From positions 487 to 64,486 of the forward strand of contig JAPLME010000007.1 in NCBI GenBank assembly GCA_026387175.1: DNA of 64,000 nucleotides. The letters run 5' to 3'. The notes beneath the pieces are model-generated. The model was given only the letters and a program-made list of their open reading frames with translations, did not search any database and was not told the origin of the DNA. Source of the stretch: Candidatus Omnitrophota bacterium (GTDB taxonomy: Bacteria; Omnitrophota; Gorgyraeia; 2-01-FULL-45-10). Position numbers and translations under genes: made by a program. Shown in pieces: positions 6,808-38,414 of the stretch (its first letter is position 1; each line of letters opens with the position of its first letter).

Positions 6808-6845
6808 GACTTTTTCTATCTATCAAAATATAATTGACAGTTAAT

Positions 6846-7568: not shown

Positions 7569-8009
7569 ATGATACGAGTCAAATTTTTAAGGACCAGATA
7601 TCTGACCGGAAGCCATATCCAGATAAAATATCTGTCCCTTCTTCTCATCTCTATGGCGGTGCCGCTCATCCTTGTCGGATGCTGCCTCTATTACCTGATA
7701 TTTACGCTTATGGGCGAACAGATAGGCATACCCGAATATATCGCGTACCATCTCTCTCCCGTTGTGAGCAAGATAAATATGATGCTTTTGATAGGCGTAC
7801 CGCCGTTATTTTTACTGCTTACGCTGTGGGGGATAGTGCTCTCTCACCGTTTTGCCGGCCCCCTCGAGAGGCTGGAGAAAGAATTGCATGAGATTTCGGA
7901 AGGCAAGCATCACAGACACAGGATAACGCTGCGCAAACATGACGATATCAGGCCCATCGCCGACGCCATAAATAAGTTGTTGGCCAAGCATGAGGAAAGG
8001 AAAGGATGA
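7569..8009 (+). CDS. Small membrane protein with a HAMP-like linker
   Basis: Two TM helices, then an amphipathic segment (FAGPLERLEKELHEISEG..) resembling a HAMP domain. 4-bp overlap with lpxA. Confidence 0.4.
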   Translation: MIRVKFLRTRYLTGSHIQIKYLSLLLISMAVPLILVGCCLYYLIFTLMGEQIGIPEYIAYHLSPVVSKINMMLLIGVPPLFLLLTLWGIVLSHRFAGPLERLEKELHEISEGKHHRHRITLRKHDDIRPIADAINKLLAKHEERKG

Positions 8010-9442: not shown

Positions 9443-10009
9443 ATGAAGGTTATCGGAATAAGCGCCAGCCCCAGAAGATCCGGTAACAGCGAGATCCTTC
9501 TGGATAGGGCTCTCGAGGGCGCCATGTCGGCGGGAGCCGACGTAGAGAAGATCGTGTTAAATGAGCTCGACTTCAAAGCGTGTCAGGAGTGCGGCGGGTG
9601 TGAAAGAAGCGGCGTATGCGTTATCCGTGACGGTATGAGCCATCTTTATAAAGAACTGGATAAGGCCGACGCCATTATTGTATCGTCCCCAATATTCTTC
9701 GCTTCACTAAGCGCTCAGGCAAAAATGATGATAGACCGTTTCCAATGCGCCTGGGTGGCAAAGTATATTTTAAAGAATCGTGCTAAGGCAAAGAAGCGTA
9801 AAGGTATATTCATAAGCGTAGCCGGCTCTTACAGGAAAGATTCTTTTGACAATGCAAAGAGCATAATCAAAGCGTTTTTCGCGACGCTCGACATTGAATA
9901 CGCCGACGAATTATTTTGCGGCGGTATCGAGAAGATGAAAGATATAGATCAGGATGAGAAGGTTCTGAACAGAGCATATACTTTAGGGGTTGGTTTAGTT
10001 AAAATATAA
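9443..10009 (+). CDS. Iron-sulfur flavoprotein (Isf) / NADPH-dependent FMN reductase family
   Basis: Flavodoxin-like N-terminus (VIGISASPRRSGNS) plus the compact Cys motif CQECGGCERSGVC (C-x2-C-x2-C-x5-C) typical of Isf. Confidence 0.7.
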   Translation: MKVIGISASPRRSGNSEILLDRALEGAMSAGADVEKIVLNELDFKACQECGGCERSGVCVIRDGMSHLYKELDKADAIIVSSPIFFASLSAQAKMMIDRFQCAWVAKYILKNRAKAKKRKGIFISVAGSYRKDSFDNAKSIIKAFFATLDIEYADELFCGGIEKMKDIDQDEKVLNRAYTLGVGLVKI

Positions 10010-10028
10010 AATAGTTATATTTTAAATG

Positions 10029-10057
10029 TTGACACATAACAAACGTTGATATATACT
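10029..10057 (+). promoter_or_regulatory. Sigma-70-like promoter: TTGACA, 17-nt spacer, TATACT
   Basis: Read directly. Lies 26 nt upstream of the ATG at 10084. Confidence 0.5.
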
Positions 10058-10083
10058 ATGTGGTGCAAATAAAAAGGTGGAAT

Positions 10084-10446
10084 GTTATGAGATTTAAAAC
10101 TACAATTCAATTAGTATCAGATGCACAGGACAAGAGCGAAGCATTAGATCTGGTCGAAGAATATCTCGCAGGCAATATAGTTTCCGGCGTAGATATGAGA
10201 TGCGTAACTAAACCGGTTTACAAGTCAAACATAGTATGTGTGGCGGCAATTTCATTGGCTATAGTTACCGGCATACTTGTAGGGTCGCATATCAAACATC
10301 CGCAAAACATGATACAGACAATCCCCGGCACAAGCGCTATCCAGTCACCCCTCAAGACCTCCGATATTACGCATAGTAAACCGGAGTTTAAGAAAGAATG
10401 GCAGGACAGGCAGACGAAAGAAGCGTTGGATCAGATTAGCCGGTAA
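10084..10446 (+). CDS. Hypothetical membrane-anchored protein
   Basis: The ATG at 10084 has an upstream RBS (aaaggtgg), whereas the ORF-track GTG start at 10060 lies inside the promoter. One TM helix. Confidence 0.4.
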   Translation, partial: VMRFKTTIQLVSDAQDKSEALDLVEEYLAGNIVSGVDMRCVTKPVYKSNIVCVAAISLAIVTGILVGSHIKHPQNMIQTIPGTSAIQSPLKTSDITHSKPEFKKEWQDRQTKEALDQISR

Positions 10447-10525
10447 TTCGCGGCGGTTCCCTCCTGATTTATCTTGAAATTTCAAAAATTCATTGTATAC
10501 TACTCCTATAGCTAAAGGAGAACGC

Positions 10526-11002
10526 ATGAAGATTTTGACGTATATTCTGATATTAGGGCTTGTTCTTTCGATGGGCGTTCCCGCCGTATGCGCGCGTGAT
10601 AATAACGATGATGATTCCGGTGATGAAGGCGGAAGCTCTACCTTGGGCAGCGCTATAATGGGCGGCCTTCTTGGCGGCGGCCTGGGTGCCGCTATAGGCA
10701 GCGGTAGCGGTAACGCAGGGAAAGGGGCATTGATAGGGGCCGGGATCGGAGCTGTCGGCGGCACGCTTATGGGAGCGGCAAAGGACGATCAGAGAAATAA
10801 AGACCGTCAGTATAAACGCGAGGCGCAGATGGAACAGCAGAGGTATGAAAAGGAGCAATATCTGCAGGAACCTGTTCCTGTTCAAGTGCAAGCGCCGGCT
10901 CAAGCGCAAGCTATGGAAACGTCGCCAATCAAGAAAAAGATCGTGCGCCAGTACGATTCCAACGGCAACGTGGTTTCGGAGAAGGAAGTCCCTGTCAACT
11001 GA
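10526..11002 (+). CDS. Secreted glycine-zipper (YMGG / 17-kDa-antigen-like) protein with a Gln-rich tail
   Basis: RBS aaaggag before the ATG at 10526. Signal peptide. G-x3-G-x3-G zipper (GGLLGGGLGAAIGSGSGNAGKGALIGAGIGAVGG). C-terminal motif KKKIVRQYDSNGNVVSE shared with the paralog at 12561. Confidence 0.55.
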   Translation: MKILTYILILGLVLSMGVPAVCARDNNDDDSGDEGGSSTLGSAIMGGLLGGGLGAAIGSGSGNAGKGALIGAGIGAVGGTLMGAAKDDQRNKDRQYKREAQMEQQRYEKEQYLQEPVPVQVQAPAQAQAMETSPIKKKIVRQYDSNGNVVSEKEVPVN

Positions 11003-11079
11003 TAACTAAAAAAGATCCCGACATTTTAAAGTCCTACCTGGAGGATAGCTCAAACCTCAAAGGCGGCCACGCCGAAGAG

Positions 11080-12489
11080 GTGGCGATTCCGGAGAACATC
11101 GAAGAGCTTTCCGATTTCCTGAAAAAATCGAATTTCGAGAAGTTGCCCGTGACGATATCGGGTGGAGGTACCGCTACGACAGGTTCGCGCGTGCCATTCG
11201 GCGGCGCCGTGATCTCAATGGAGAAATTCAACAGGATATTGAAGATATCGAAGAAAGATATGTCAGCCACGCTTGGGGCCGGTGTGATGGTCGATGAGCT
11301 TAAGAAGGCCGCTGAGAGGGAAGGCCTCTTTTATACGTGCCACCCTACGGAAAGTTCCGCGTTTGTAGGAGGGACCATCTCCACTAATGCCTCAGGCTCA
11401 AGATCGTTTAAGTACGGACCCACCCGAAATTATGTGAAAAGGCTTAAGATGGTGCTCGCTGACGGCGCTGTAATGGACCTGCGTCGCGGCGAGGTTTTTC
11501 TGTCGCGCGAGAGTTCCAAAGTTAAAATGCCGGGCCGCACTGAAATAGTTGTGCCATTGCCGCATTACAGGATGCCCGACGTAAAAAGCTCTTCCGGCTA
11601 TTTCGCGAAAGACGGCATGGATCTGATAGATCTATTCATAGGACAGGAGGGGACCCTCTCCGTTATAGTCGAGGCCGAACTTGCGCTTGTTAAGAGGCCG
11701 CTTAAAATATTAAGCTCGTTCGTTTTTTTTAATAGAGAGGAAGACGCCTGGAGCTTCGCCTTCGAGGCCCGCGATCTTTCAAAGAAGAAGAGGGCCTCTC
11801 CCGGGAATTTAATGTTAGACGCTCTTTCGATAGAATATTTCGACTCAAATGCGCTTGCCATTTTAAGGGAGGCCAAAGCGAATATTCCTTCTAATGCGCG
11901 GGCCGCCATATTTTTTGAACAGGAGACGGTCACCGGCAAAGATGGAGATAAGGTTCTGGATGAATGGCTCGGGCTTATCTCGAAGCATGGGGCGCCGCTC
12001 GATGATACATGGGTCGCCATGAACGAGAAGGAAGCGGCGAAATTCGCAGAATTCCGGCATGCCGTTCCGGAGGCTGTCAATGATCTTGTAAGGGAATACG
12101 GTTACCATAAGTTCAGCACGGATATAGCGGTGCCTGATGGCAGGGCGCTGGAAATGCTGGAGTTCTATACCGGGACATTGAGGAACCAAAAGCTCAGGCA
12201 CGTTATGTTCGGCCATATAGGAGAAAGCCACGTTCATGTCAATATCCTGCCCAGGTCCGAGGAAGAGTTAACAGCGGCCAGGGAAATTGTTCTAAGATTC
12301 GTGAGGAAAGGCGTTTCGGTGGGCGGGGCCGTATCTGCCGAACACGGTATAGGTAAGATAAAGCACAAATATCTGGAAGAGATGTATGGAACTTCCGGTG
12401 TGTTGGAGATGTCTAAGATAAAGAAGGCGTTTGACCCTAATTGCATCCTGGGGCTCGATAATATATTTCCGAGAGAGCTGTTGAAATGA
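11080..12489 (+). CDS. FAD-binding oxidoreductase (FAD-linked oxidase family, GlcD / D-lactate-dehydrogenase-like)
   Basis: FAD_binding_4-type N-terminal domain (PVTISGGGTATTGSRVPFGGAVISMEKFNRIL) and C-terminal oxidase domain. The listed start is GTG, and the frame stays open and coding-like upstream to about 11005. Confidence 0.8.
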   Translation: MAIPENIEELSDFLKKSNFEKLPVTISGGGTATTGSRVPFGGAVISMEKFNRILKISKKDMSATLGAGVMVDELKKAAEREGLFYTCHPTESSAFVGGTISTNASGSRSFKYGPTRNYVKRLKMVLADGAVMDLRRGEVFLSRESSKVKMPGRTEIVVPLPHYRMPDVKSSSGYFAKDGMDLIDLFIGQEGTLSVIVEAELALVKRPLKILSSFVFFNREEDAWSFAFEARDLSKKKRASPGNLMLDALSIEYFDSNALAILREAKANIPSNARAAIFFEQETVTGKDGDKVLDEWLGLISKHGAPLDDTWVAMNEKEAAKFAEFRHAVPEAVNDLVREYGYHKFSTDIAVPDGRALEMLEFYTGTLRNQKLRHVMFGHIGESHVHVNILPRSEEELTAAREIVLRFVRKGVSVGGAVSAEHGIGKIKHKYLEEMYGTSGVLEMSKIKKAFDPNCILGLDNIFPRELLK

Positions 12490-12560
12490 AATGAGCTTGA
12501 ATTTTATAAAATATAGGAGTATTATTAATCCATACTTTATAAAATGAGGGGGAACGACGG

Positions 12561-13313
12561 ATGAATATTAGAAAATCGGGATCATGTCTTATAGCTGTAT
12601 TATTTATATGTGTTTTATTTGTTGCTTTCACTTACGGGCAAGACGATGATAATACCCGAAACGTGTTAAAACAGGGCCTGCTTGGAGCGGGAGTCGGCGC
12701 CATATCGTCCTCGGCATCGGGCGGAAACGCTGGACAGGGCGCGTTGATAGGCGCCGGAACGTCGGTCATAGGCAGCGCTCTCTTAGACGCTATTACCGGC
12801 CCTTCATCCTCATCTTCTTCGCGCAGGAGCGCGCCGCCACCGGATAACTATTATTACGCGGATTCGCCCCAGGATTATTACTATGAAGAGGAACCTCCCC
12901 AGGAATCCGGCACATCTAAGATATTGAAGCAGGGGCTTGTTGGCGCGGGCACCGGGGCCCTGGCCTCCGGTATGTCCGGTGGTGACGCCGGCAAAGGCGC
13001 GTTAATAGGCGCCGGAACCTCGGTCATAGGCAATGCTCTTCTGGACGCGATAACCCAGCCGCCGCAGCAGAGGAGAAAAGTATACAGGCGCGCGCCGCCG
13101 CCACAGCAGTATCCTCCGCAGCAGCAGTATCCGCCGCAGGCTTATCAACAGCAGTACCAGCCTCAACAGCAATATCAGCCTCAGGCCCAACCCCAGCCTC
13201 AGAACATCCAGGTCTCGGAAGAGCCGACAGGATCGGGCGAGGGGAAGAAGAAGATCGTCAAAAAATATGACGCTAACGGAAAACTGGTTTCAGAGGAAGA
13301 GATATATTACTAG
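12561..13313 (+). CDS. Secreted glycine-zipper protein with a Pro/Gln-rich low-complexity region (paralog of 10526..11002)
   Basis: Signal peptide. Two copies of ILKQGL(L/V)GAG.GA..S..SGG.AG.GALIGAGTSVIG.ALLDAIT. A PPQQQYPPQ.. tract. C-terminal KKKIVKKYDANGKLVSEEE motif. Confidence 0.55.
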   Translation: MNIRKSGSCLIAVLFICVLFVAFTYGQDDDNTRNVLKQGLLGAGVGAISSSASGGNAGQGALIGAGTSVIGSALLDAITGPSSSSSSRRSAPPPDNYYYADSPQDYYYEEEPPQESGTSKILKQGLVGAGTGALASGMSGGDAGKGALIGAGTSVIGNALLDAITQPPQQRRKVYRRAPPPQQYPPQQQYPPQAYQQQYQPQQQYQPQAQPQPQNIQVSEEPTGSGEGKKKIVKKYDANGKLVSEEEIYY

Positions 13314-13387
13314 CCGATGAAAAGGCCGATGCCAGAGACATCGGCACTTAGCCTGCAATACGGCTGAATAAACTAGGAGCGTATAGT

Positions 13388-13636
13388 ATGAAGAATATAA
13401 GTTGGGTGGCGGTAGTTCTTATATTGGCTGTTTTGTTTATCCTCGAGTTTCGCTATACAGTTGTGGTCCATTCCCCGATCGTGGCAAAGGTAGACCGTCT
13501 TACCGGCGATGTATGGATAGCCAATTCCGGAATGTGGCTAAAGGTGCAGCATTCCGTAAAAGACAAGGCTGTTCCACAGGCCGCGAGTTCTGTCCAGAAA
13601 CCGGCTAAAGATGCCTCGCAGGAAAAATCCAAATAA
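13388..13636 (+). CDS. Hypothetical small membrane-anchored protein
   Basis: RBS aggag. N-terminal TM helix. Confidence 0.35.
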   Translation: MKNISWVAVVLILAVLFILEFRYTVVVHSPIVAKVDRLTGDVWIANSGMWLKVQHSVKDKAVPQAASSVQKPAKDASQEKSK

Positions 13637-13658
13637 AGTCGTAATAGCCTAGCCAAAA

Positions 13659-14201
13659 ATGCCGAAAGAGCTTAAGTATATCCAGGTTGCCGCGCTTCTC
13701 ATAGCAGCGATAATTTATCTGGGTATAAAAAATTACCCGTTTACCAAAAGCACATCCGGAACAGATAAAACCGAATTTTATTATGTCGCGCGGGTAGTCG
13801 ACGGCGATACGTTAAAGCTTTCTTCGGGTGAAAAGATCAGGCTTATCGGGATGGATACGCCGGAGGTATATTACAGTAATAAACTTTTGAGAGACTCGAA
13901 AAGAAGCGGCACAGATATAAAGACGATACAGTCCTTGGGCGCCAAGGCATCCAAATTCACTAAAGATCTCTGTCTCGGCAAGAGAGTGCGGCTTGAATAT
14001 GATGCTGTAAAACATGATCGATACGGCAGAACGCTGGCATACGTATATCTGGAAGACGGCACATTTGTAAACGCGAAGATCGTAGAAGAGGGTTATGGAC
14101 AGATTATGACCGTGCCTCCCAATGTAAAATATGCCGACTATTTCCTGAAACTGGAAAGGCAGGCAAGGGAGGGCAAGAAAGGGCTCTGGAAATTTAAATG
14201 A
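13659..14201 (+). CDS. Thermonuclease (staphylococcal/micrococcal nuclease, SNase-like), membrane-anchored
   Basis: N-terminal TM helix. SNase motifs DGDTLKL..IRLIGMDTPE and RYGRTLAYVY...AKIVEEGYG. Confidence 0.8.
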   Translation: MPKELKYIQVAALLIAAIIYLGIKNYPFTKSTSGTDKTEFYYVARVVDGDTLKLSSGEKIRLIGMDTPEVYYSNKLLRDSKRSGTDIKTIQSLGAKASKFTKDLCLGKRVRLEYDAVKHDRYGRTLAYVYLEDGTFVNAKIVEEGYGQIMTVPPNVKYADYFLKLERQAREGKKGLWKFK

Positions 14202-17625: not shown

Positions 17626-17638
17626 AAAGGGAGGCAGC

Positions 17639-17812: not shown

Positions 17813-17821
17813 TATCGTTTG

Positions 17822-18142: not shown

Positions 18143-18192
18143 GGCGAAAAAGCTAACTTTCGTTAGGCCTTAAAAAAGTTTGTATTTAGCTA

Positions 18193-18220
18193 TTGACACT
18201 TTTAAAATCTGTGATATACT
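18193..18220 (+). promoter_or_regulatory. Sigma-70-like promoter: TTGACA, 16-nt spacer, TATACT
   Basis: Read directly. Lies about 215 nt upstream of the first giant GLUG-repeat gene. Confidence 0.55.
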
Positions 18221-18391
18221 CGAACTGTAGCTTCGATAAAGGCAAAGCCGTCGAAAGACGGTGGCGTTCCCTGAAGTGGAGAAGGGGACTGCGGCCTAAG
18301 AGAAAATAGGCCGTAGCAAAGCCAAGGATCTAGAAAATTAACTAGATAGCCTGGTTACCGAAAAGCGGTTTCGGAAACCAGGCTTTTTTAT
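18221..18391 (+). promoter_or_regulatory. Structured leader RNA of about 170 nt, ending in an intrinsic terminator 43 nt before the start codon. Candidate riboswitch or attenuator.
   Basis: Several local hairpins, including ccguc-GAAA-gacgg and cggccu..aggccg. The leader then runs into a 14-bp terminator stem plus U6. Confidence 0.45.
18350..18391 (+). terminator. Rho-independent terminator inside the leader (the attenuator 'OFF' element)
   Basis: Stem cctggttaccgaaa/tttcggaaaccagg (13 of 14 bp paired, loop agcgg), followed by cTTTTTTatt. Confidence 0.7.
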
Positions 18392-18433
18392 TACGGTGGT
18401 AGTGAGGCTTCAATAACCAAAAGGGGGTACTCC

Positions 18434-21391
18434 ATGAACGCCCTGGCGATAACCAAAAAGACCTTATCAGTCCTTCTCATCTGCACTTTTATCACGAGCC
18501 AGGCGGCCTATCCCGTAACAGAAAACACCCAAACTAAAACTACCTACGAACAGAGTGTGCCCGGATCTTCCGTAGAAAAGACAATAAGCGCCGCCGCCGC
18601 TCTTACCTCTATGATAGAGGCCAAGAATGCCCTGATCTCCGCGCCTGTCGTTAGCAACCCCGCGGCACAGCAGATCATCATACACAGTGTATTCGAATTA
18701 CAGAACATCTCACAAAACCTCACCGCACATTATGCTCTCGCCAATGACATCGACGCCTCTATTACTAAAACATGGAACGGCGGATTAGGGTTTAATCCTA
18801 TTGATGGCTTTGCCGGTATATTCGATGGCCAGGGATACACGATCTCCAGCCTATATATAAATAGAGATACGCTAAATTTACTTGGGAGAAGGGATAACAT
18901 AGGACTTTTTGGTAAAACTGCTATTAATGCATGGGAAACCAGAATTATAAACACACATCTCGAGTCTGTTTTCATAACTGCTAATAGCTCTGCCGGAGGG
19001 TTGGTGGGCTTTTTCGCTAGTGGTGTAATCGAAAACTGCTCGGTAACGGGAACGATAAATATGGTGAATAGTAGTAGCGTTGGCGGCGGCCTTGTGGGCT
19101 GGAATGAGGGAGAGATATATAACTCCTCGGCGGAGGTAGCCGTGACCAGCTATAGCGAAGGCGGCGGCCTTGTCGGACAAAATAACGGATTAATTTACGG
19201 CTCTTACGCCGCAGGCATACTCGACGGCGCTTTATATACCGGCGGTCTCGCAGGCCGGAACGATGGGCGGATATATTACTCCACGGCTACGGGATCTGTG
19301 AATTGCTATCAATATGGCGGTGGCCTTGTAGGCTGGAACGAGGGGGAGATATACAGCTCCACGGCAGCGGGAGCCGTGAATGGCTATTATGGCATGGGCG
19401 GCCTCGTAGGCCGGAACAAGGGAGATATATATTACTCCATGGCTACGGGAGATGTAAACAAGAACTATTACGGTTCTTTCGATGCCGGCGGTCTTGTAGG
19501 CTGGAACGATGGAGAGATATACAGCTCCACGGCTGCTGGAACCGTTCGTGGTCGTTACAGCCCCGGTGGCTTCGTAGGGTCTAACAACGGGCAGATATAC
19601 TATTCCGCGGCAACGGGAACTGTGGAAGGATATGAGGGTGCTGGCGGTTTCGCGGGATTAAACGGTAATATCGGTACGATCTCAGGCTGTTACGCCACAG
19701 GTATCGTCACCAGTACTTCTGGTACCGATTACAGTACCAAGCGCACTGGTGGCTTTGTTGGTATGAACTATCGTTCCGGCATAACCGGTATAACCAATTC
19801 ATATGCGTCTAAGTTATATAACGTCCTCGACCTACAGCTTATTAAGTACAGGCCGACCGGTACATTTACAGTAATGCAGGACATCGATGCCATCGATACA
19901 AAAAACTGGAACGGGGGGCAGGGGTTCGAGTCGATCGCGAACTTCAATGGGATTTTCGACGGTAAGAACAAGGTCATCTCCAACCTCTATATAAACAGGC
20001 CCACCGAGAATAGTATAGGGCTTTTCGGATGGAATATGGGCACCATCATAAATACAGCCCTCAGCTGGGCAAATGTAAATGGTAGTTGCTACATTGGGGC
20101 GCTTGTAGGCATGAATTATGGCCAGATATCTAACTCTTGGGCAAACGGCGTGATAAAAGGAGCCTATTACCTTGGCGGCCTCGTTGGCATGAATTATGGC
20201 CAAATATGTAACTCCTGGACAAGCGGAACAATAAACGGCTATTACGGCGTAGGCGGCCTCGTCGGATACAATTACGGACTAATCCGGAGTTCTAATGCAT
20301 CGACCACTGTAAATGGCACTTACTATGTAGGCGGCCTCGCCGGCATGAACTATGCCCAGATATATAGCTCCACAGCAATAGGGATAATAAGCGGCTATTA
20401 CGGTATCGGCGGCCTCGCCGGATATAACTATGGTTTGATCTGGGGTTCTACCGCGTCGCCCACTGTAAATGGCACTTACTATGTCGGCGGCCTCGCCGGC
20501 ATGAGCTACGGCCAAATATATAACTCCACGGCGGTAGCGACGGTGAACGGCTATTACGGCGTCGGCGGCCTCGCAGGATATAATTATGGCTTAATCTGGG
20601 GTTCTTACGCCGCATGTGCTGTAAAAGGTACTTACTATGTCGGCGGCCTCGCCGGCATGAACTACAGCCAGATATATAATTCAACGACATGGGGAGTAAT
20701 AAACGGTTATTCCGGCATCGGTGGACTTGTCGGATATAACTACGGATTGATATATGGTTCCAGCGCATACGCCAATGTCACAGGCACCTGCTATGTCGGC
20801 GGCCTCGCCGGCATGAATTATGGCCAGATATATAACTCCTGGGCCAGTGGAATAGTAAATGGCTGGAACTACATCGGCGGGCTTGTCGGGGTAAATAGCG
20901 GCACTATCTCGGGATCCTCGGCACGGGGAGCCGTAACAGGCTATTACGGTACAGGCGGGCTTTGTGGATTGAATTACAGTGTTATCTCATCCTGTTATGC
21001 CACAGGCGCTGTCGCAGGCACTTACTATGCCGGCGGCCTTACCGGCATGAACTATGGCCAGATATCTTACTCTACCGCATATGGAGCCGTGAACGGCTTT
21101 TACGGTATCGGCGGCCTGGTCGGATATAACGCCGGCGTGATCTTAAACTCTTACGCCGTAGGCGCAGTTTCAGGAACTTACGATGTCGGCGGTCTTGTCG
21201 GTTTGAATATGTATACCGGCAAGATATATAATTCCGCGGCAACAGGAGGAGTAAATGGCTATGCCTATGTCGGCGGCCTCGTAGGCGCCAACTATGGCTT
21301 AATATCGAAGTGCTGGGCTATTGGACGTGTATTTGGTTCATACTATGTTGGTCAGTTAGTCGGTTATAACGCAGGGACCATAATATATTGA
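18434..21391 (+). CDS. Giant secreted GLUG-motif beta-solenoid repeat protein, first gene of the pair (985 aa)
   Basis: Signal peptide (..FITSQA/AYP). A ~110-aa N-terminal module (ANDIDASITKTWNGGLGFNPIDGFAGIFDG.GYTIS.LYINR) that recurs internally. More than 25 tandem ~26-aa repeats YVGGL(V/A)G.NYG.I.NS.A.G.V.G, which I read as the GLUG motif (PF07581-like). A conserved C-terminal tail. Confidence 0.75.
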   Translation: MNALAITKKTLSVLLICTFITSQAAYPVTENTQTKTTYEQSVPGSSVEKTISAAAALTSMIEAKNALISAPVVSNPAAQQIIIHSVFELQNISQNLTAHYALANDIDASITKTWNGGLGFNPIDGFAGIFDGQGYTISSLYINRDTLNLLGRRDNIGLFGKTAINAWETRIINTHLESVFITANSSAGGLVGFFASGVIENCSVTGTINMVNSSSVGGGLVGWNEGEIYNSSAEVAVTSYSEGGGLVGQNNGLIYGSYAAGILDGALYTGGLAGRNDGRIYYSTATGSVNCYQYGGGLVGWNEGEIYSSTAAGAVNGYYGMGGLVGRNKGDIYYSMATGDVNKNYYGSFDAGGLVGWNDGEIYSSTAAGTVRGRYSPGGFVGSNNGQIYYSAATGTVEGYEGAGGFAGLNGNIGTISGCYATGIVTSTSGTDYSTKRTGGFVGMNYRSGITGITNSYASKLYNVLDLQLIKYRPTGTFTVMQDIDAIDTKNWNGGQGFESIANFNGIFDGKNKVISNLYINRPTENSIGLFGWNMGTIINTALSWANVNGSCYIGALVGMNYGQISNSWANGVIKGAYYLGGLVGMNYGQICNSWTSGTINGYYGVGGLVGYNYGLIRSSNASTTVNGTYYVGGLAGMNYAQIYSSTAIGIISGYYGIGGLAGYNYGLIWGSTASPTVNGTYYVGGLAGMSYGQIYNSTAVATVNGYYGVGGLAGYNYGLIWGSYAACAVKGTYYVGGLAGMNYSQIYNSTTWGVINGYSGIGGLVGYNYGLIYGSSAYANVTGTCYVGGLAGMNYGQIYNSWASGIVNGWNYIGGLVGVNSGTISGSSARGAVTGYYGTGGLCGLNYSVISSCYATGAVAGTYYAGGLTGMNYGQISYSTAYGAVNGFYGIGGLVGYNAGVILNSYAVGAVSGTYDVGGLVGLNMYTGKIYNSAATGGVNGYAYVGGLVGANYGLISKCWAIGRVFGSYYVGQLVGYNAGTIIY

Positions 21392-21442
21392 AGAGCAATA
21401 TGATAGGGTAGGCAATTTTCAATAACGATAGGGAGGTGTCCC

Positions 21443-24400
21443 ATGAACACCCTGGCCGTAATGAAGAAAACAGTATCGGTATTTCTCATATGCACTTTTA
21501 TCACGAGCCAGGCGGCCTACCCTGTATTAGAAAACACCCAAACTAACACATCCTACGAACAGAGTGTGCCCGGAACCTCCGTAGAAAAGACATTAAGCAC
21601 TACAGCTGCTCTTACCTCTATGATAGATGCCAAGAACGCTCTCCTGGGGCCGACGCCTGTGGCCAGTAACCCTGCTGCGCAATAGGTTGCCAGTACTACC
21701 ACCGTTCAACCCACTATCGTTATACACAGCGTATTCGAACTGCAAAATATTTCACAGAACCTCACCGCGCATTATACCCTCGCCAATGACATTGATGCTT
21801 CTATCACTAACACATGGAATGGTGGTCTAGGATTCAACCCTATAGACAATTTTGCCGGTATCTTCGATGGCGGTGGATATACCATCTCCAACCTCTATAT
21901 AAATAGGCCCAACGAAGACTTTATAGGGTTATTCGGTAGTACGGTCATAAGTAAATGGGATACCAGGATAATGAATGTGCGGCTCGAATCGGTTTCTATA
22001 ACCGGATTAAATGCTGTAAGCGGTCTTTGCGGATATAATGCAGGGACAATCTTAGCTTCTTATGTCACTGGGTCTGTTATTGGCTATACCGCTGCGGGGG
22101 GGCTGGTAGGAATAAATGATGGCAAAATAGATAATTGCCAAGTGACTGGAACAGTAAGTGGCCGTCCCGGTGAAACTTCTGGTATCGGCGGTCTTGTAGG
22201 TGAAAACTACGGCACGATCTCAAACTCACAAACGGGTGGGACTGTGGAAGGGACTTTAGGTAATAAAGCCCTTTGTGCTGGTGGCCTTGTCGGATTTAAT
22301 GAAGGTATAATTTCAACTTCTTATTCCACGAGTAATGTTGGCGGAAGTGACTTTCTCGGCGGATTCGTAGGTATAAATGGCGGTAAAATATATAATTCCT
22401 CTGCAATGGGAACAGTAATTGGCCCGCACTCTGAAGGTATAGGTGGATTTGCTGGTGGAAATTGGGGAGAGATCTTTAGTTCACGGGCAAGCGGAGCCGT
22501 GAACGGATATGGAGATGTCGGCGGCCTGTGCGGCGGAGTCGCGATAGGTGGGATGGTTTTCGATTCTTACGCTACAGGTATTGTTACAGGTGTTGAAGTT
22601 GTCGGTGGTCTCGCAGGCATAAGTTATGGAAATGTAACTAATTCCAGGGCAACTGGAACAATAAGCGGTAAGACATGTATTGGCGGTCTCATAGGTAGCA
22701 ATATTGGCTTGATATCGGAATCTTGGGCGAGTGGCGTTGTAAGTGGCGACTGGACGATTATCGGCGGCCTGTGCGGGTACAATGGTGATGGCGGTACAAT
22801 TAAAGCCTCTTATGCTAAAGGAAGCGTCACTTGTAATGACACTTATAACTATTATACCAGTAGCGATGATGTTGGCGGATTGGTGGGTGATAATTTTGGC
22901 ACAATTTCAGATTCTTGGGCAGCTGGTACGGTAAAAGGTGCTGAAGGTGTTGGCGGTCTATGCGGGTATACCGGTGGTATAATATCCGCCTCATATTCTT
23001 TAGGCAACGTTATCGGTAAATCTAAAGTCGGTGGGTTTTCCGGTGCTACCTCTGGGGACATATCTAACTCTTGGGCGACAGGAGCAGTGACTGGTGGCAA
23101 CAGTACCGGCGGGTTCTCGGGTTTAAATTTCGGTTCAGTATCCGATTCCTGGGCAAGCGGAGTTGTGAAGGGGTCTTCATATGTAGGTGGTTTTGTGGGT
23201 AGTAATGGTTATGAAGGCACGATCTCAAACTCCTGGGCAAGCGGAGCTGTGGATGGAGTTTCATATGTTGGCGGTTTATGTGGATACAATGTTTACGGCA
23301 TGATAGCGTCCTCTTACGCCTTAGGCAACATCACTGGAACCGACCACGTAGGCGGACTTGTAGGCATGAATATTAGCAAGATATATAACTCCTGGACAAG
23401 CGGAGCTGTGAATGGATCTTTATATGTTGGCGGCATAGCTGGATATAATATGAATTACGACATAGGTGGCATAATTTTATCGACTGGCATAATCTCAGGC
23501 TCTTGTGCCACAGGCGTTGTCACCGGCACCAACTTTGTCGGCGGCCTTGTCGGCAAAAACGATAAATCCGGCATAACCGGTATTACCAATTCCTATGCAT
23601 TGAACTTGTATAACGTCCTCGACCTCCAGCTTATGAAGTACAAGCTGGACGGCACATTTACGGTGATGGGTGACATCGACGCCTCCGACACCAAAAACTG
23701 GAATGGGGGAAAGGGGTTCGAGTCGATCGCAAACTTTGCGGGTATTTTCGACGGCAAGAACAAGGTCATCTCCAACCTCTATATAAATAGGCCTACTGAG
23801 ACCAATATAGGATTCTTCGGCAGTACAGCTATAGGTCCGTGGGAAGTCAAGATCATGAATACGCGGCTTGAGTCGGTTTCTGTGACTGGTAATGGTTCCG
23901 TTGGTGGTCTTGTTGGCTGTTTGTCAGCAAATGGCACAATAGAGCGCTCTTTGGTAACGGGAACTATAAACGGTCTCGGCTACTATATAGGCGGCCTTGT
24001 TGGTGGCAACTTTGAAGGAACCATTCGACAGTCATTTGCATCCGCGACAGTAACTGCCCCCGGCCTTGTTGGCGGTTTAGTTGGTATGAATACCGGAGAT
24101 ATTTATGATTCATATTCGACCTCCGATGTCAGCGGCAATTATTGGGCTGGCGGACTTGTCGGATTTAACAATGCCCAGTGGCAATATGCATATGGCCCAC
24201 ACGGTACGCGCATCCCTTATTTGGCATATGCCGGTAATGTTTACCGCAGCTATTCTACGGGCAGAGTTACTGGTTCTGACATTTATAATGGCGGGCTTAT
24301 AGGGTGCTCATGGGGTGGTACTATCTCCGACTCATACTGGAATATGAATACTTCCGGCATGAGTACAAGCGGTGGTGGCATGGGGAAGACCACAGCTCAG

Positions 24401-26866
24401 ATGATGGACGCCTCGACGTTTACGGGATGGGATATTTCATATAATTCCGGGCACACGTGGATCATGGCTGGGTATCCGCATCTGCAGTGGGAGTGGACCG
24501 ACAAGATAACCAACGCCTCCCAGCTCCAGATGGTGACGCTCAATACTAGCGCTAACTATACCATCGCTAATAACATCGATGCCTTCGCCACTAAAGGATG
24601 GAATGGCGGGTTGGGTTTTAACCCTATCGATGATTTTGCGGGCATTTTTGATGGCAAGAACAAGGTCATCTCCAACCTCTATATAAATAGGCCTAGTGAG
24701 TACTATGTAGGCCTTTTTGGCAGCATAGGTACAGGTTCGCAGGAAGCCAGGATTACGAATACAAGGCTCGAGTCGGTTTCTATAACCGGCGATAGTGATG
24801 TGGGCGGCCTCGTCGGTAGTCTATCAAATAAAGGCGTGATTGAGAATTGCTCCGTAACCGGAACGGTAAAAGGCTATAATTACACTATAGGTGGACTGGT
24901 CGGTTATAATGGTATTTACGGAACTATCCTGCAGTCATTCACGTCCGCGATAGTAAGCGCTGTTTATGGTTATGGCTACATAGTGGGCGGTCTTGTGGGC
25001 ATGAATGTCGGTAATATTTATAATTCATACTCGACATCCGCTGTAAACAATGGTTATAAATATACCGGCGGACTTGTAGGTTCCAATGCCGGTAATATTT
25101 ATAATTCCTGGGCAACAGGGACGGTAAGCAGCAATATCAGTAGTAATGTCACCGGCAATATCAGCAGTAGCGATGGTGCTGGTGGACTTGTGGGCGCGAA
25201 CTCCGGAGGAATATACGGTTCCTGGGCAAGCGGAGCAGTAATAGGAGGCGCATATGGATCTTCGCATCTCGGCGGCCTGATCTCGGCCTCGTATGCGATA
25301 GGTAGTATTATAGGGCGTAACGCTTTCCGTATCGGCGGCCTTGTAGGAGAGAACCAGGGCAAAATATATAATTCCTGGGCAAGCGGAGCTGTGAACAGTG
25401 TATATAGCTATGCCGGAGGTCTCGTCGGATACAATGCAGCTAATGGTTTGATATCGGCTTCTTATGCCATAGGTAATGTCACGGCCAGCTCATCTATCGG
25501 CGGCCTCGCAGGTTTTAACGACAACGGCACTATCTCGGACTCATGGGCAAGCGGAACTATCGCTGGAGCTAGCAATATAGGCGGCCTAGTAGGAGATAAT
25601 ACAGGAACGATTTCTAACTCTTATGCTAAAGGGAGCCTTAAGAATGGCTGTGTTGCCGGCGGACTTGTCGGTGAAAACAAGGGCTCCGGCAAAATATATA
25701 ACTCTTGGGCCACCGGAGCTGTGGATGGGAGCTCATGTGCCGGCGGCCTTGTGGGGCTTAACAACATCGGAGCCATGATTTCGAACTCATGGGCAAGCGG
25801 CGCCATAAAGGGATATGCGTATTATTCTTCAGGCCTCGGCGGCCTGGTCGGGACCAACGCCGGTATAATTTCGGCCTCGTATGCTACAGGTAGTGTTATC
25901 GGTGCGCTCAATGCAGTTCGTCTCGGCGGCCTTGTAGGAAATAACTGCGGCAAAATATATAGCTCATGGGCGAGAGGAGCCATAACCGGCGCATATACCT
26001 ATGCCGGTGGATTAGTCGGATATAACGAAGTTAATAGTTTGATTTCATACTGTTATGCGCTAGGCGCTGTTACCGGCACCTACTTTGCCGGCGGACTTGT
26101 AGGCCAGAACCGCGGCACGATCTTGAGTTCCCGGGCAAACGGCGTTGTAAATGGACAATCACTTGCCGGCGGCCTCGTTGGAGATAATTATGGCGTAATT
26201 TCCGCCTCTTATGCCACAGGCAGTGTCACCAGTACTGGTGCCGACATCGGCGGACTTGTAGGCCAGAACCGCGGCACGATCTTGAGTTCCTGGGCAAGCG
26301 GAGCCGTGAAGGGGAGATCTGAAGTCGGCGGCCTCGTCGGATGGAATGACGGACTGATCTCGGCCTCGTATGCTTTGGGCAATGTTATTGGCTCTGCTAT
26401 TCTTGGCGGCCTTGTAGGCGACAATTATTATTCCGGCACGATCTCGAATTCATGGGCCGGGGGAGCCGTAACCGGGGATACAAATGTTCTATCTTTTCAA
26501 TCCTTTGCCGGCGGATTGGTGGGAAATAATCATGGCTTGATCTCAACCTCCTGCGCCACCGGTAATGTTACCACAGCCTCTTCCTGGATCGGCGGGCTTG
26601 TGGGTATAAATTACGGCAAAATATATAATTCCTGGGCGTCGGGAATAGTAAAAGGATATGATTTCGTTGGCGGGCTCACAGGTTTTAATAATAACACGAT
26701 CTCTAATTCCTGGGCGAGGGGAACTGTAAGCGGGCATTACTACGTCGGCGGCCTGGTGGGCGCCAACTACGGCCTGATATACAAGTGCCGGGCATTTGGC
26801 CGCGTATTCGGTTCACGTTATGTAGGTTGGCTAGTCGGTTATAACGCTGGGACCATAATATACTAG
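21443..26866 (+). pseudogene. Second giant GLUG-repeat protein, interrupted by one in-frame TAG at 21683-21685. As a single frame it would encode about 1807 aa.
   Basis: ORFs 21443..21685 and 21971..26866 share a frame, and I translated 21686..21970 with no further stop. The N-terminal 80 codons are highly similar to the 18434 paralog, including its signal peptide. The ORF-track alternative is a 1631-aa product from the internal ATG at 21971, which would lack a signal peptide. Confidence 0.6.
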
Positions 26867-26914
26867 AGGCAGTAACCGCATTTGCCGGGCCTCCACTCCC
26901 GGCAGATGTATTAT

Positions 26915-26960
26915 CCCCATGTCGATTGACGCTGTCGGCATGGGGATTTTTTTGTTTTTG
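26915..26960 (+). terminator. Rho-independent terminator after the giant gene pair
   Basis: Stem ccccatg/catgggg followed by TTTTTTTGTTTTTGTTTT. A second short hairpin gccggg/cccggc lies just upstream (26884-26903). Confidence 0.7.
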
Positions 26961-26967
26961 TTTTAAT

Positions 26968-26996
26968 TTGACTATCAACTTCTCCTGTGGTATATA
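26968..26996 (+). promoter_or_regulatory. Sigma-70-like promoter: TTGACT, 17-nt spacer, extended -10 TGgTATATA
   Basis: Read directly. Lies about 60 nt upstream of the DUF134 gene. Confidence 0.5.
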
Positions 26997-27055
26997 TGGG
27001 TATACACTCATAAAATAAGCTGTGGATAGATTTTGTAAAATGGGGGTTTAATTTT

Positions 27056-27385: not shown

Positions 27386-27451
27386 GCTAAAATCCATATA
27401 ACGTCCTAAGTTAACATTGATGTTTAGTGCGATTTGTGATATGGTTATGGT

Positions 27452-28315
27452 ATGGCTAAAGGGTTAAGAACAAGATTGAACCAGGAAGAGTTGCGCAGGC
27501 TATATCTTGTAGAGAAAAAATCTCTCGAGGATATCGCGCGGCTACATGGTGCATCCAGGGTTGCCGTGTGGAAGTATTGTAATGCCGAGGGCTTGACGAG
27601 GCGCACCAGGTCGGCCGCCAGATTGGAAGCCCAGAAAAAAGGAAAAGTTCCCCAGGGCTTCTTCGAAATAAATGATAATTTTTTCAGTAATTGGTCTCCG
27701 GAAATGGCGTATGTTTTGGGATTAATCGCCACCGATGGTTGCGTTTCTAAATCCGGTACCGTGTCGCTCTGTATAAACGATAAAGATCTATTAGAAAAAG
27801 TAAGACTGGTTATGGATTCCGAGCATAAGATATGCCGGTCAAAGTATCAAGAAGGGTTATATTCTTTTCATTTTGCAAGGCCCCGGTTAGTTAAGGACTT
27901 GGCAGCGCTTGGTATTCTGCCCAGGAAGAGCCTGAATATTAAGTTTCCGGCAGTTCCGGATGCTTTTTTGATTGATTTTGTCAGAGGAGTTTTTGATGGT
28001 GACGGCTCCGTGTATTTTGAAAAACGAAGCGAACGCTATCCTTTAAGAACGACATTTGTCAGCAGCTCGCAAGAGTTCATTGAAAAACTGGAGATCGTTC
28101 TGCGGCAAATGGGGTTACCTGAACGTGTAATACACAGGCAAACTACGAAAAACGGATTACATTTTAAGATCAGATATAGTCATAAAGATAGCGCGAAACT
28201 GTTTCATTTGATGTACAATGACACTGCCAATTCCTTGTTTTTGGGGCGTAAATATAATAAATTTTTGGATGGTTTTCAGAAAGAAAATAGCGGAGCTGAA
28301 TATAATGGAAAATGA
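27452..28315 (+). CDS. Free-standing LAGLIDADG-family endonuclease-like protein (two LAGLIDADG motifs) with an N-terminal HTH extension
   Basis: The N-terminal ~65 aa form an HTH (SLEDIARLHGASRVAVWKYC). Motif 1 is YVLGLIATDGCVS and motif 2 is FVRGVFDGDGSVY, both keeping the acidic residue. The ~110-aa spacing is typical of single-chain LAGLIDADG enzymes. Confidence 0.65.
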   Translation: MAKGLRTRLNQEELRRLYLVEKKSLEDIARLHGASRVAVWKYCNAEGLTRRTRSAARLEAQKKGKVPQGFFEINDNFFSNWSPEMAYVLGLIATDGCVSKSGTVSLCINDKDLLEKVRLVMDSEHKICRSKYQEGLYSFHFARPRLVKDLAALGILPRKSLNIKFPAVPDAFLIDFVRGVFDGDGSVYFEKRSERYPLRTTFVSSSQEFIEKLEIVLRQMGLPERVIHRQTTKNGLHFKIRYSHKDSAKLFHLMYNDTANSLFLGRKYNKFLDGFQKENSGAEYNGK

Positions 28316-28517
28316 GCTAGAGGCATGGCGCAAAGCGCATAAATTTTACTCATGTAGCGCCTATTTGACGAAAGATTTAGCAGCATATCTAAAAGTCTCA
28401 CCCAGGACGGTTCAGAGGTGGCTAAAAGGAAAGACGCATCCCAAAGAAACGCAATTAGGCCTTATCAAAAAATATCTATCCGAAAACTCCAAAAATACCA
28501 CCAAAAGCGAAATATAG
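28305..28517 (+). CDS. Small HTH DNA-binding protein
   Basis: ATG at 28305 overlaps the upstream stop (ATGGAAAATGA), implying translational coupling. HTH segment TKDLAAYLKVSPRTVQRWLKGK. Confidence 0.5.
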   Translation: MENELEAWRKAHKFYSCSAYLTKDLAAYLKVSPRTVQRWLKGKTHPKETQLGLIKKYLSENSKNTTKSEI

Positions 28518-29097: not shown

Positions 29098-29108
29098 TTA
29101 TAGGCTTT

Positions 29109-29501: not shown

Positions 29502-29505
29502 GTTC

Positions 29506-32648: not shown

Positions 32649-33899
32649 ATGAAAAGAGTCATAGCGCTTATTTTAGGCGGCGGACAAGGTAAAAGGCTTT
32701 TCCCTCTCACCGAATACCGGTCCAAGCCGGCGGTTCCGATAGCGGCAAAGTACCGGCTCATAGATATTCCTGTATCAAACTGCCTCCACTCCGGGATTAA
32801 GGACATATATGTGCTTACGCAATTTAACTCTGAATCCCTGAACAACCATATAAATAATACATACCGGTTCGACTATTTTTCCAGGGCGTTCGTAAGGATA
32901 CTTGCCGCAGAGCAGACGGTCGATAATACGAACTGGTTCCAGGGGACAGCTGATGCCGTGAGGAGAAATCTGTTTCATCTTAACCTTGAGGGCGATGAGA
33001 TGATACTTATTCTCTCGGGCGACCATCTTTATAACATGGACTATCGAAAGTTCATAACTTTTCACACGAAGCATGGAGCTGATTTCACTTTATCCGCGAT
33101 ACCGATAAAGACGAATGAGGCCGGTGAGTTCGGAGTTATAAAACTGAATCGGGATAACAGGATCATCGGATTTAAGGAAAAGCCCAGGAACAGGACTGAG
33201 CTTAAAGGCTACGTTTTTAAAGGCGATATGCATGGTGTGAGGACTCTGCCGGGAGCGTACTGTCTCGCCTCTATGGGCGTGTACGTATTTAACGCAAATG
33301 CCCTGATGAAAGTCCTGGAAGGCAATGACGCGGATTTCGGAAAAGAGGTCATCCCGAATTCTATAAAAAATTATACAGGGGCGGGTTATGTGTTCGATGG
33401 TTACTGGAAGGACGTCGGCACGATAAAATCATATTATGATGTAAATATGGATCTCGCTAGCGGAAAACAGTACATGTCATTCTTCTACGACGGGTCGGTA
33501 TTTACGAGGCCCCGCTTCCTTCCTGTGGCGAGGATATCCAACTGTAAGCTGGAAAAATCGCTGGTGGCCGAAGGGTCCGTAATAACGGATGCCAGCATAT
33601 CCCACTCGATCGTGGGCGTGCGCTCTATCGTCGGTAAAAACTGCAGAATATCGAGAACGGTGCTTATAGGCGCCGATTTCTATGAGGCGCCGGGTAGCTC
33701 CGAGCCGATAAAGATAGGCGTCGGTGACGGTACGGTTATAGACAAGACCATCGTGGATAAGAACGCCAGGATCGGCAGGAATGTCGTTATAAGAAATATT
33801 AATAAACTGAAAAATTACGATGGCGGGAACTATTTCATCAGAGACGGCATCGTGGTTATTCCGAAGAACGCGAAGATCAAGGACGGCACGCGCATTTAA
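32649..33899 (+). CDS. glgC: Glucose-1-phosphate adenylyltransferase
   Basis: LILGGGQGKRLFPLT..SKPAVP..YRLIDIPVSNC N-terminal nucleotidyltransferase signature, and a C-terminal left-handed beta-helix. Confidence 0.9.
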   Translation: MKRVIALILGGGQGKRLFPLTEYRSKPAVPIAAKYRLIDIPVSNCLHSGIKDIYVLTQFNSESLNNHINNTYRFDYFSRAFVRILAAEQTVDNTNWFQGTADAVRRNLFHLNLEGDEMILILSGDHLYNMDYRKFITFHTKHGADFTLSAIPIKTNEAGEFGVIKLNRDNRIIGFKEKPRNRTELKGYVFKGDMHGVRTLPGAYCLASMGVYVFNANALMKVLEGNDADFGKEVIPNSIKNYTGAGYVFDGYWKDVGTIKSYYDVNMDLASGKQYMSFFYDGSVFTRPRFLPVARISNCKLEKSLVAEGSVITDASISHSIVGVRSIVGKNCRISRTVLIGADFYEAPGSSEPIKIGVGDGTVIDKTIVDKNARIGRNVVIRNINKLKNYDGGNYFIRDGIVVIPKNAKIKDGTRI

Positions 33900-37193: not shown

Positions 37194-38414
37194 TTAAAGG
37201 CTTATTATCGAGTCGAACGTGCCGAAAGAGTTCTGTTCGCGCTCCTTATTCTGAGAATCCGATATCCATTCGCCGTCGATAATGAATTTGTATTTATGCC
37301 TGCCTGCGGTTAATCCCAGCTTCTTTTCCCATCTGCCGTTATCAAGCCTCGAGAGACGGCAGTCTTCGGTGATCTTCCAGTTATTGAAATCACCGACAAC
37401 GTATATCTCCTTTGCGCTCGGCGCGTCTACGTTAAAGAGTATATCCCTCGGAGAGGTCGTCGACTCTTCAATATTATTGGTAACTCCTCTGGGCAAGTTC
37501 ATGACCGGCGCGGCGCTTTCGCGCGCGACGTCACTTACCGTTTCTTCTATTCTTGAGCCGGATGATGGCAGGACGGCTTCGGCACTCCGGGCGGTCTCTG
37601 TAGCCGCCGTCGGCGATACGGCGTTCAACGCCTTTTCGAATTCAAGGGCTCCATCCGCCCTAAGCATCTCCTGAGCCAAGGCCATATAATCCTTCGCGCC
37701 GATAGAGTCCTTATTGAACCGGGTAATACATACCCCTTTGGCGGCGGCTTTTTTCAGGTCTACATTCATTCTTATCACGGTCGATAGTAACTGGTCCTTA
37801 AAGAACGCTTTTATCTCGTTATACATGACCTCAGAGTATTTTGTCCTCCTGTCATAGAGAGTGGCGAGCGCGTTTACCTGAGGCGAATGGAATATCTTTA
37901 TCTTTATCAGTTCCAGCATACCAAGAAGCTTTCCGACGCCCATCAAAGAGAGCGCGCTCATGTCTATCGGAACTATTACCTGGTCGCAAGCGCGTAATGC
38001 GTTAAATGTCAAGAACCCCAGGCTCGGCGGGCAGTCTATGACCATATAATCGTAGTCCAGATGGCTCATCGTCAGCGCCTGGTGCAATTTTGATACCGCG
38101 TCTTCCTTGTCCTTTAATTCCTGTTCAAGGGTGCTTAATAGTATATTCGCGGGCACTATATCCAGATTAGGAGAAACGTTGACTATGCAATCTTTTATGG
38201 GGCGGTTCTTTTCCGGATTATCCGTCAGGACGTTGTAGACAGAGCGGTCCATGCTCTGATTCGTCCGGTTGAGGCTGAAGCTCGCATGAGCCTGAGGGTC
38301 GAGATCCACCACCAGGGTCTTTTTACCCGTCTCCGCAAGTGCGCCTGCGAGATTTATGGCCGTCGTGGTCTTACCGCAACCGCCCTTTTGATTGGCTATT
38401 GCTATTTTCTTCAT
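37194..38414 (-). CDS. ParA/MinD-family ATPase fused to a C-terminal CBM48 / AMPK-beta-type glycogen-binding domain
   Basis: Deviant Walker A KGGCGKTT near the N-terminus, then a ParA-like fold to about aa 250. A Ser/Ala/Thr-rich linker follows. C-terminal IYVVGDFNNWK..HKYKFIIDGEWISD..NSFGTFDSIISL. Confidence 0.75.
   Translation of the reverse strand: MKKIAIANQKGGCGKTTTAINLAGALAETGKKTLVVDLDPQAHASFSLNRTNQSMDRSVYNVLTDNPEKNRPIKDCIVNVSPNLDIVPANILLSTLEQELKDKEDAVSKLHQALTMSHLDYDYMVIDCPPSLGFLTFNALRACDQVIVPIDMSALSLMGVGKLLGMLELIKIKIFHSPQVNALATLYDRRTKYSEVMYNEIKAFFKDQLLSTVIRMNVDLKKAAAKGVCITRFNKDSIGAKDYMALAQEMLRADGALEFEKALNAVSPTAATETARSAEAVLPSSGSRIEETVSDVARESAAPVMNLPRGVTNNIEESTTSPRDILFNVDAPSAKEIYVVGDFNNWKITEDCRLSRLDNGRWEKKLGLTAGRHKYKFIIDGEWISDSQNKEREQNSFGTFDSIISL

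Follow-up and report, generated by a model that had tools for sequence, protein, structure and literature searches.

We have analysed a 64,000-nucleotide (nt) stretch of DNA from a Candidatus Omnitrophota bacterium (GenBank assembly GCA_026387175.1, contig JAPLME010000007.1; hereafter the window), in which two tandem genes, gene 1 and gene 2, encode paralogous GLUG-repeat proteins and the frame of gene 2 is interrupted by a premature TAG at codon 81. This interruption is probably a genuine, very recent nonsense mutation, which silences one copy of a duplicated gene for a β-helix surface protein, putatively under the control of cyclic di-GMP (c-di-GMP). An earlier note, made from the letters of the window, had described the stop and offered a pseudogene, a phase variant, a sequencing error or readthrough as its explanation. 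The first of these, in the form of a nonsense allele, found support, sequencing error and phase variation did not, and readthrough was neither supported nor rejected. The interrupted frame and its intact neighbour are made up as follows.

18434..21391, plus strand: gene 1, encoding an intact GLUG-repeat protein of 985 amino acids (aa) with an N-terminal signal peptide, the paralog of gene 2.
21432..21438, plus strand: Shine-Dalgarno (SD) sequence of gene 2, GGAGGTG, a 7-nt match to the anti-SD complement, 4 nt before ATG 21443.
21443..21685, plus strand: 5' piece of gene 2, 80 codons for a signal peptide and linker, closed by the premature TAG.
21683..21685, plus strand: premature TAG, codon 81 of gene 2; CAG in gene 1 and in the syntenic orthologue.
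21686..21715, plus strand: 30-nt linker segment encoding VASTTTVQPT (VSNSDSVQAV in the orthologue), absent from gene 1.
21686..26866, plus strand: remainder of gene 2, 1,726 sense codons followed by the terminal TAG (26864-26866).
21971..21973, plus strand: first canonical in-frame start past the premature TAG, an ATG with no usable SD.

Direct reading and translation of 21443-26866 agree with the earlier description of one in-frame TAG, 80 codons into gene 2. The gene starts at ATG 21443, its codon 80 (CAA, 21680-21682) directly precedes the TAG, no further stop occurs between 21686 and 21970, as had been stated, and the same frame remains open to 26864; without this one interruption gene 2 comprises 1,807 codons for a protein of 1,807 aa. 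If codon 81 were decoded, the residues across it would read NPAAQ-X-VASTTTVQPTIVIH, or in a longer form SNPAAQ[Q/X]VASTTTVQPTIVIHSVFELQ. At the DNA level, GCA CAG CAG in gene 1 is followed immediately by ATC, and GCG CAA TAG in gene 2 is separated from the corresponding ATC by the 30 nt. Continuity of the frame past the TAG is not due to chance, because codons 92-155 of gene 2 match gene 1 (58 of 64 amino acids identical) and also align with the orthologue. Both genes begin with a signal peptide, recognised by inspection (MN..KKT.SV.LICTFITSQA/AYP), and both score far above the Pfam GLUG cut-off of 20.5 bits (PF07581; E 4e-64 and 209 bits for gene 1, E 2.5e-87 and 281.9 bits for gene 2). The 5' piece of gene 2 has its own GenBank record (MCX5678093.1, NTY76_03180, ‘MAG: hypothetical protein [Candidatus Omnitrophica bacterium]’, MAG being a metagenome-assembled genome), on a contig of 247,818 bp. 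In the frame of gene 2 between 21686 and 21970 there is no ATG, GTG or TTG, and the list of open reading frames (ORFs) starts the downstream ORF at 21971.

The exact look-up of the 80-aa product retrieved ten contigs, assembled separately from public sequencing runs of three accession series (SRR25046532, SRR25046533, SRR20698639 and eight ERR153021xx-2xx runs). These contigs match the window with 100% identity, TAG included, over 1.2-3.2 kb (maximum 3,152 nt, 20631-23782). A look-up keyed on the 80-aa product favours the TAG allele; an allele-neutral one, keyed on the C-terminal fragment of gene 1 (window 20633-21391) that is called at contig starts, gave six contigs, and all five of those that reach the site carry the 80-aa ORF with its TAG. 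As independent contigs match exactly across the site, we regard the premature TAG as real and a sequencing or assembly error as excluded. When looked up exactly, gene 1, the 1,631-aa ORF and the ORFs for MnmG and GuaA were not on record, probably owing to different start choices or to long or partial proteins being unrecorded. Repeat units of 156 and 312 nt are arranged in tandem within gene 1 (20174-20864; 2-4 copies, ~77% matches), and it is presumably because of such repeats that the short-read assemblies all break at 20631 and 23782.

The polarity of the substitution is given by an orthologue (P0129, 1,265 aa) found when residues 1-180 of gene 1 were searched exhaustively with HMMER; the match begins at residue 1 (E 1e-77). 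It is encoded at 10001..13798 of locus L030 (GCA_043808115.1, contig JAZDFG010000051.1), and this locus is collinear with 9.1-32.5 kb of the window at ~70-78% nucleotide identity. The common gene order comprises FMN reductase, Gly-zipper proteins, FAD oxidase, SNase, PAC2, DUF748 and a Wzx-like flippase before the GLUG region, and DUF134, HypA, 4HBT thioesterase, M50 peptidase, Ysc84, PHO4 and PhoU_div after it. At the site, the orthologue reads GCG GCG CAG CAG GTC TCC AAT TCC GAC TCC GTT CAG GCT GTT ATT; it thus has CAG at the position of the TAG and keeps the 10-codon linker. Since both the orthologue and gene 1 have CAG (Gln) there, the mutation in gene 2 was CAG to TAG, a C-to-T transition, as the earlier note had deduced from gene 1. 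An intact Gln codon in orthologues, which that note had named, together with reads uniformly showing TAG, as the mark of a true pseudogene, is thus found in the paralog and in the syntenic orthologue alike. The 30-nt segment had been taken for an insertion in gene 2, which reverses its polarity: because the orthologue also has the segment, it is ancestral and was lost from gene 1. Compared with gene 2 and the orthologue, gene 1 shows this 30-nt deletion and an 18-nt insertion (TLNLLG). A copy of the segment from elsewhere in the window was considered and rejected, the 33-mer at the TAG site being unique in the window and the segment being ancestral.

Between the upstream Wzx-like gene and the downstream DUF134 gene, L030 has a single intact GLUG gene where the window has two, and we therefore regard the pair as the product of a lineage-specific tandem duplication with module reshuffling. 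Gene 1 has retained the ancestral upstream region, and gene 2 retains more of the ancestral body, e.g., the GKTTAQMMDASTF...YPHLQWEW junction; residues 724-1805 of gene 2 are 50% identical to residues 96-1126 of the orthologue. There are two head-plus-repeat modules in gene 1, three in gene 2 and two in the orthologue. Other searches added no relative of this kind. A scan of genome contigs with the N-terminus of gene 2 found distant GLUG proteins only (at most 46% identity, none covering residues 1-65). The sole locus from a scan of metagenome contigs with the leader alignment (L028) was spurious, being a stop-riddled frame opposite a long ORF. Word-index protein searches with 365 aa and 137 aa of the N-terminus gave no orthologue among the matches listed, all of which were below ~640 aa, long proteins lying seemingly beyond that index.

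Substitution patterns suggest that the lesion is young. In codons 92-155, which lie past the TAG and before any possible start codon, the proportions of synonymous (pS) and non-synonymous (pN) differences between gene 1 and gene 2 are 0.70 and 0.057 (pN/pS 0.08), and pN/pS is 0.25 in codons 1-80. With the orthologue as the outgroup, lineage-specific amino-acid changes number four in gene 2 against six in gene 1 over codons 1-80, and three against seven over codons 82-176. Downstream of the TAG, 586 of the 15,534 possible substitutions would create a stop and none is present; the absence of a second stop therefore implies that, per site, fewer than ~0.015 neutral substitutions have occurred since the origin of the TAG (P = 0.05, indels ignored). 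Neither relaxed selection nor further lesions, the hallmarks of a pseudogene, were found downstream. Such an intact and constrained frame is that of a gene in which either the TAG is very young or translation still proceeds, as far as the alignments can tell. A separate observation concerns the leader: pS in codons 1-80 is 0.44, below that of the next segment (0.70-0.9), a hint that the 5' end has undergone gene conversion.

The control region from which both genes are probably expressed lies upstream of gene 1 and, with the end of the unit, comprises four elements.

18193..18220, plus strand: sigma-70-like promoter, TTGACA, 16-nt spacer, TATACT, with a TG extension; 11 of 12 consensus positions.
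18231..18362, plus strand: c-di-GMP-I riboswitch aptamer (RF01051, GEMM-I), 39.8 bits against a gathering score of 35, model positions 1-87 in full.
18348..18393, plus strand: terminator hairpin with U-tract, AGCCUGGUU...AACCAGGCU then UUUUUUAUU, a putative expression platform that overlaps the aptamer's 3' arm.
26913..26957, plus strand: strong intrinsic terminator, a 14-bp stem (26913-26947) and T-run, 47 nt past the stop of gene 2.

The promoter-like sequence is the best site in 17600-27500; it is a consensus match only, in a region that is collinear with the upstream region of the orthologue. The orthologue is also preceded by a c-di-GMP-I aptamer (L030 9833-9957, 41.9 bits), and in both leaders the match exceeds the gathering score and spans the full-length model. 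The hairpin at 18348-18393 folds with -24.9 kcal/mol (z = -4.0), and none of 200 shuffled sequences folds as well. No terminator-like site was found by the scan between the two genes, and gene 2 is preceded by a 51-nt spacer with the SD, with no control region or aptamer of its own. We infer from these signals a ligand-ON riboswitch that would drive a two-gene transcript, and the arrangement suggests c-di-GMP-ON control of these β-helix surface proteins. A second promoter-like site lies in the 3' end of gene 1 (21203-21232, plus strand; TTGAAT, 18-nt spacer, TATAAT, 10 of 12 positions). It stands at -240 to -211 from the ATG of gene 2, and the main promoter at -241 to -214 from that of gene 1; the similarity of these distances may be a coincidence.

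Promoter-like site, riboswitch, gene 1, gene 2 and terminator thus most likely form one unit, judging from their order on the DNA. Ribosomes would begin gene 2 at the strong SD and ATG 21443, the SD being the strongest when 18434, 21443, 21971 and 21977 are compared as start sites, and would stop at the TAG after 80 codons to release a signal peptide with a linker fragment of ~55 aa. The remaining 5.2 kb of gene 2 would stay untranslated. Untranslated stretches of mRNA are prone to Rho-dependent polarity, to which this one is probably subject. Gene 2 would then be effectively silenced, with its function supplied by gene 1, and the lesion is too young for a second disabling mutation or relaxed constraint to show.

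The following points weigh against silencing by a recent nonsense mutation. Functional readthrough would equally leave an open frame of 1,726 codons under purifying selection. The tRNA search covered 64 kb of the genome, and a suppressor tRNA may be encoded elsewhere. The confirming contigs, all 100% identical, may derive from a single site or clonal population. Finally, assemblies show the majority allele only, and minor CAG alleles in the samples would stay hidden.

Functional readthrough or suppression, in which the TAG is decoded at some frequency, whether by a near-cognate tRNA-Gln or by an amber suppressor tRNA from another part of the genome, is an unlikely explanation that nevertheless accounts for several observations. 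The 1,726 codons past the TAG are intact and under strong purifying selection, changes specific to gene 2 are not in excess, the gene has kept its strong SD and ATG 21443, and the codon replaced is that for Gln, the usual identity in amber suppression. The stop would then act as an expression attenuator for the second paralog and allow a reduced amount of the full-length 1,807-aa protein, which we consider just as unlikely. A young mutation explains the intact frame equally well, however, and the way TAG is used in the window speaks for ordinary termination.

Among the ~50 ORFs taken as genes, 21 end with TAA, 19 with TGA and 10 with TAG. In a reassigned code TAG would be rare as a terminator and in-frame TAGs would occur in many conserved genes; here TAG closes genes where their Pfam models end, and gene 2 itself, in accordance with the earlier opinion that an altered code is unlikely. 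The PurQ-like gene 38460..39263 covers positions 1-259 of the 260 in Pfam GATase_5 before its TAG. In the DUF3047 gene 6834..7565 the match spans model positions 2-198 of 198, and the SD and ATG of its neighbour come next. The terminal GYNAGTIIY-TAG of gene 2 is the exact counterpart of GYNAGTIIY-TGA in gene 1. Of the four TAGs that had been listed as genuine terminators, those at 13311, 26864 and 7563 are real gene ends; that at 28515 is no confident gene end and closes only a 99-aa ORF (28218..28517) overlapping the 3' end of a LAGLIDADG gene.

A window-wide scan of ORF pairs joined by one stop found that homology crosses a stop in gene 2 only. Two further candidates for TAG-split genes were rejected. 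The ORFs 6834..7565 and 7569..8009 are adjacent ordinary genes, the second with its own SD and ATG; 38460..39263 and 37194..38414 have two TAGs between them and are ordinary neighbours. In both of these same-frame, TAG-separated pairs the upstream gene finishes at the end of its Pfam model.

Signals that could assist recoding were likewise sought. RNA structure downstream of the premature TAG is not significant (z = +0.56), and this fold test led us to reject a PYLIS-like (pyrrolysine insertion sequence-like) or readthrough-stimulating element there; no Rfam element was found at the site. There are no tRNA genes in the 64-kb window or in L030. The stop context is TAG-G, which is not known as a notably leaky one in Escherichia coli. 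In the papers retrieved by full-text searches for Omnitrophota there was no report of stop-codon recoding or pyrrolysine, and queries with the sample accession numbers yielded nothing relevant. A pyrrolysine codon is not indicated: the host gene encodes a GLUG surface protein, no downstream structure follows, and the orthologue has CAG, so that the TAG is no conserved feature. In a more specific form, a leaky TAG with low-frequency Gln readthrough might keep the larger paralog at a small fixed fraction of the first on the same c-di-GMP-controlled transcript. We consider this quite unlikely; if true, it would represent natural stop-codon readthrough for dosage control of a bacterial surface protein.

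A population polymorphism, in which TAG coexists with CAG as an on-off allele, would make the loss of a surface antigen or adhesin reversible or balanced, with an effect like that of contingency loci, though by way of a point mutation. The youth of the mutation and the restriction of assemblies to the majority allele would fit, and loss-of-function polymorphisms often affect repeat proteins exposed at the surface. We likewise hold this to be unlikely, as TAG was present in ten of ten contigs in the allele-keyed look-up and in five of five in the allele-neutral one. No CAG version occurred among the protein matches listed, from word-index searches that apparently returned only proteins below ~640 aa. 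Phase variation in the strict sense lacks its usual basis: no hypermutable or other simple repeat was found at the TAG site (GCGCAATAGGTTGCC), the arrays found by Tandem Repeats Finder (TRF) being confined to 19229-20864, and no repeat tract or invertible element suited to high-frequency switching is present at the site.

Structure prediction bears on the question of whether the downstream part of gene 2 could function by itself. The AlphaFold2 model of the 372 residues after the TAG, built from an alignment of 37 sequences, is a right-handed β-helix with an N-terminal cap (mean predicted local distance difference test score, pLDDT, 95.6; predicted template modelling score, pTM, 0.93). The first nine residues form a disordered linker (mean pLDDT 63 for the first ten), and the cap consists of a strand (10-13) and two helices (16-24 and 39-47). 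The best match in the PDB is 3n6z (Foldseek E 1.2e-6, template modelling (TM) score 0.53-0.58, root-mean-square deviation 2.4 Å over 273 columns), followed by β-helix domains of immunoglobulin A1 (IgA1) proteases. Sequence-level searches of PDB and NCBIfam for GLUG proteins gave no match; membership of the GLUG group is indicated by both the PF07581 score and a predicted β-helix fold like that of the solved domains. ATG 21971 corresponds to model residue 96, within a β-helix strand, and its Met is unconserved (Lys in the orthologue, Ile in gene 1). The 1,631-aa product restarted at 21971 would lack a signal peptide, as had been noted before, and the cap and first β-helix strands would also be lost.

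A split but functional gene, with an internal start (ATG 21971 or GTG 21977), no signal peptide and the 80-aa ORF acting as a separate secreted peptide, is consequently very improbable: the restart product would miss the signal peptide, the cap and the first strands. In its favour, gene callers on the run assemblies put the start at 21977, and a weak AGGA lies 8 nt before GTG 21977. Against it stand the predicted fold, in which a start at residue 96 would cut off the cap and first strands, and the unconserved Met at 21971. Moreover, codons 82-176 upstream of the start have been under strong purifying selection, which implies translation until recently, and in other proteins the GLUG head module typically sits directly after the signal peptide. 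An error in the MAG, with C as the true base at 21683, is hardly conceivable. Its one argument is the prior that a MAG consensus is sometimes wrong, and it is opposed by the ten contigs of separate assembly, from runs of three accession series, which are identical to the window across 20631-23782.

With a recent nonsense mutation as the preferred explanation, NTY76_03180 and the downstream ORF should be annotated as two pieces of one freshly interrupted gene of 1,807 codons, and the TAG at NTY76_03180 should not count as evidence of recoding in this lineage. The locus would represent a snapshot of the first step in paralog loss after the tandem duplication of a repeat-rich surface-protein gene. 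The copy hit is gene 2, which keeps more of the ancestral sequence, and the derived gene 1, with the promoter and riboswitch, is intact. In our opinion the riboswitch context is more interesting than the TAG, as it links β-helix proteins to c-di-GMP-controlled surface or attachment behaviour in Omnitrophota.

Several other features of the window deserve mention. Between the DUF134 and HypA genes, a segment of ~1.2 kb (27382-28595) contains a free-standing LAGLIDADG_3 protein gene (27452..28315, plus strand; PF14528, E 1.8e-14); L030 has only ~200 nt there, and the window therefore has an insertion of ~1 kb. Just past the segment, 28001-30000 has the lowest G+C content among the 2-kb composition windows (0.407). 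The highest-G+C stretch (0.57 in 1-2000) coincides with a gene for a 1,050-aa autotransporter with PATR repeats and a C-terminal β-barrel domain (113..3265, plus strand). On the minus strand, 37194..38414 encodes a ParA/MinD-type ATPase (AAA_31, CbiA) fused to a C-terminal glycogen-binding module (AMPK1_CBM / CBM48), an unusual domain combination located a few kb from glgC (32649..33899). Also on the minus strand, 39263..42121 is a fused PurS-PurL ORF of 952 aa with PurS, FGAR-AT linker and AIRS domains, next to purQ (38460..39263); guaA (42122..43666), a purF-like gene and a truncated CPSase-like gene lie upstream of it.

The interruption of gene 2 is best compared with young nonsense pseudogenes in duplicated surface-protein genes, where a stop stands at a position for which the paralog and orthologue have a sense codon. 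Gene 2 likewise has an intact tandem paralog, a reproducible stop and intact start signals, but it differs in having no second lesion or detectable relaxed selection, which corresponds to the earliest stage of the process. Events of this kind, in which a single nonsense mutation hits one copy of a duplicated surface-protein gene, are known. Amber (UAG) recoding, known from pyrrolysine decoding and from the TAG-to-Gln code 15 seen in some phages, resembles the present case in placing an in-frame TAG where homologues have Gln. In this window, by contrast, TAG is an ordinary terminator and gene 2 is the sole such case in ~50 genes; its TAG is not conserved in the orthologue, has no PYLIS-like structure and no suppressor tRNA within 64 kb, and, unlike the hosts of pyrrolysine systems, gene 2 does not encode a methylamine methyltransferase.

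As for the protein, the likeness to the GLUG domains of 3n6z (Bacteroides ovatus BACOVA_03286) and of the N-terminal domain of streptococcal and Gemella IgA1 proteases (6xja, 7uvk) consists in PF07581 and the β-helix. Unlike the IgA1 proteases, gene 2 has no detected protease or other catalytic domain, and comprises only a leader and three head-and-repeat modules. The aptamer upstream of gene 1 and of the orthologue recalls the c-di-GMP-I riboswitches that precede genes for adhesins, pili and surface proteins, with the difference that here it would serve a whole two-gene unit, and it is unrelated to the TAG.

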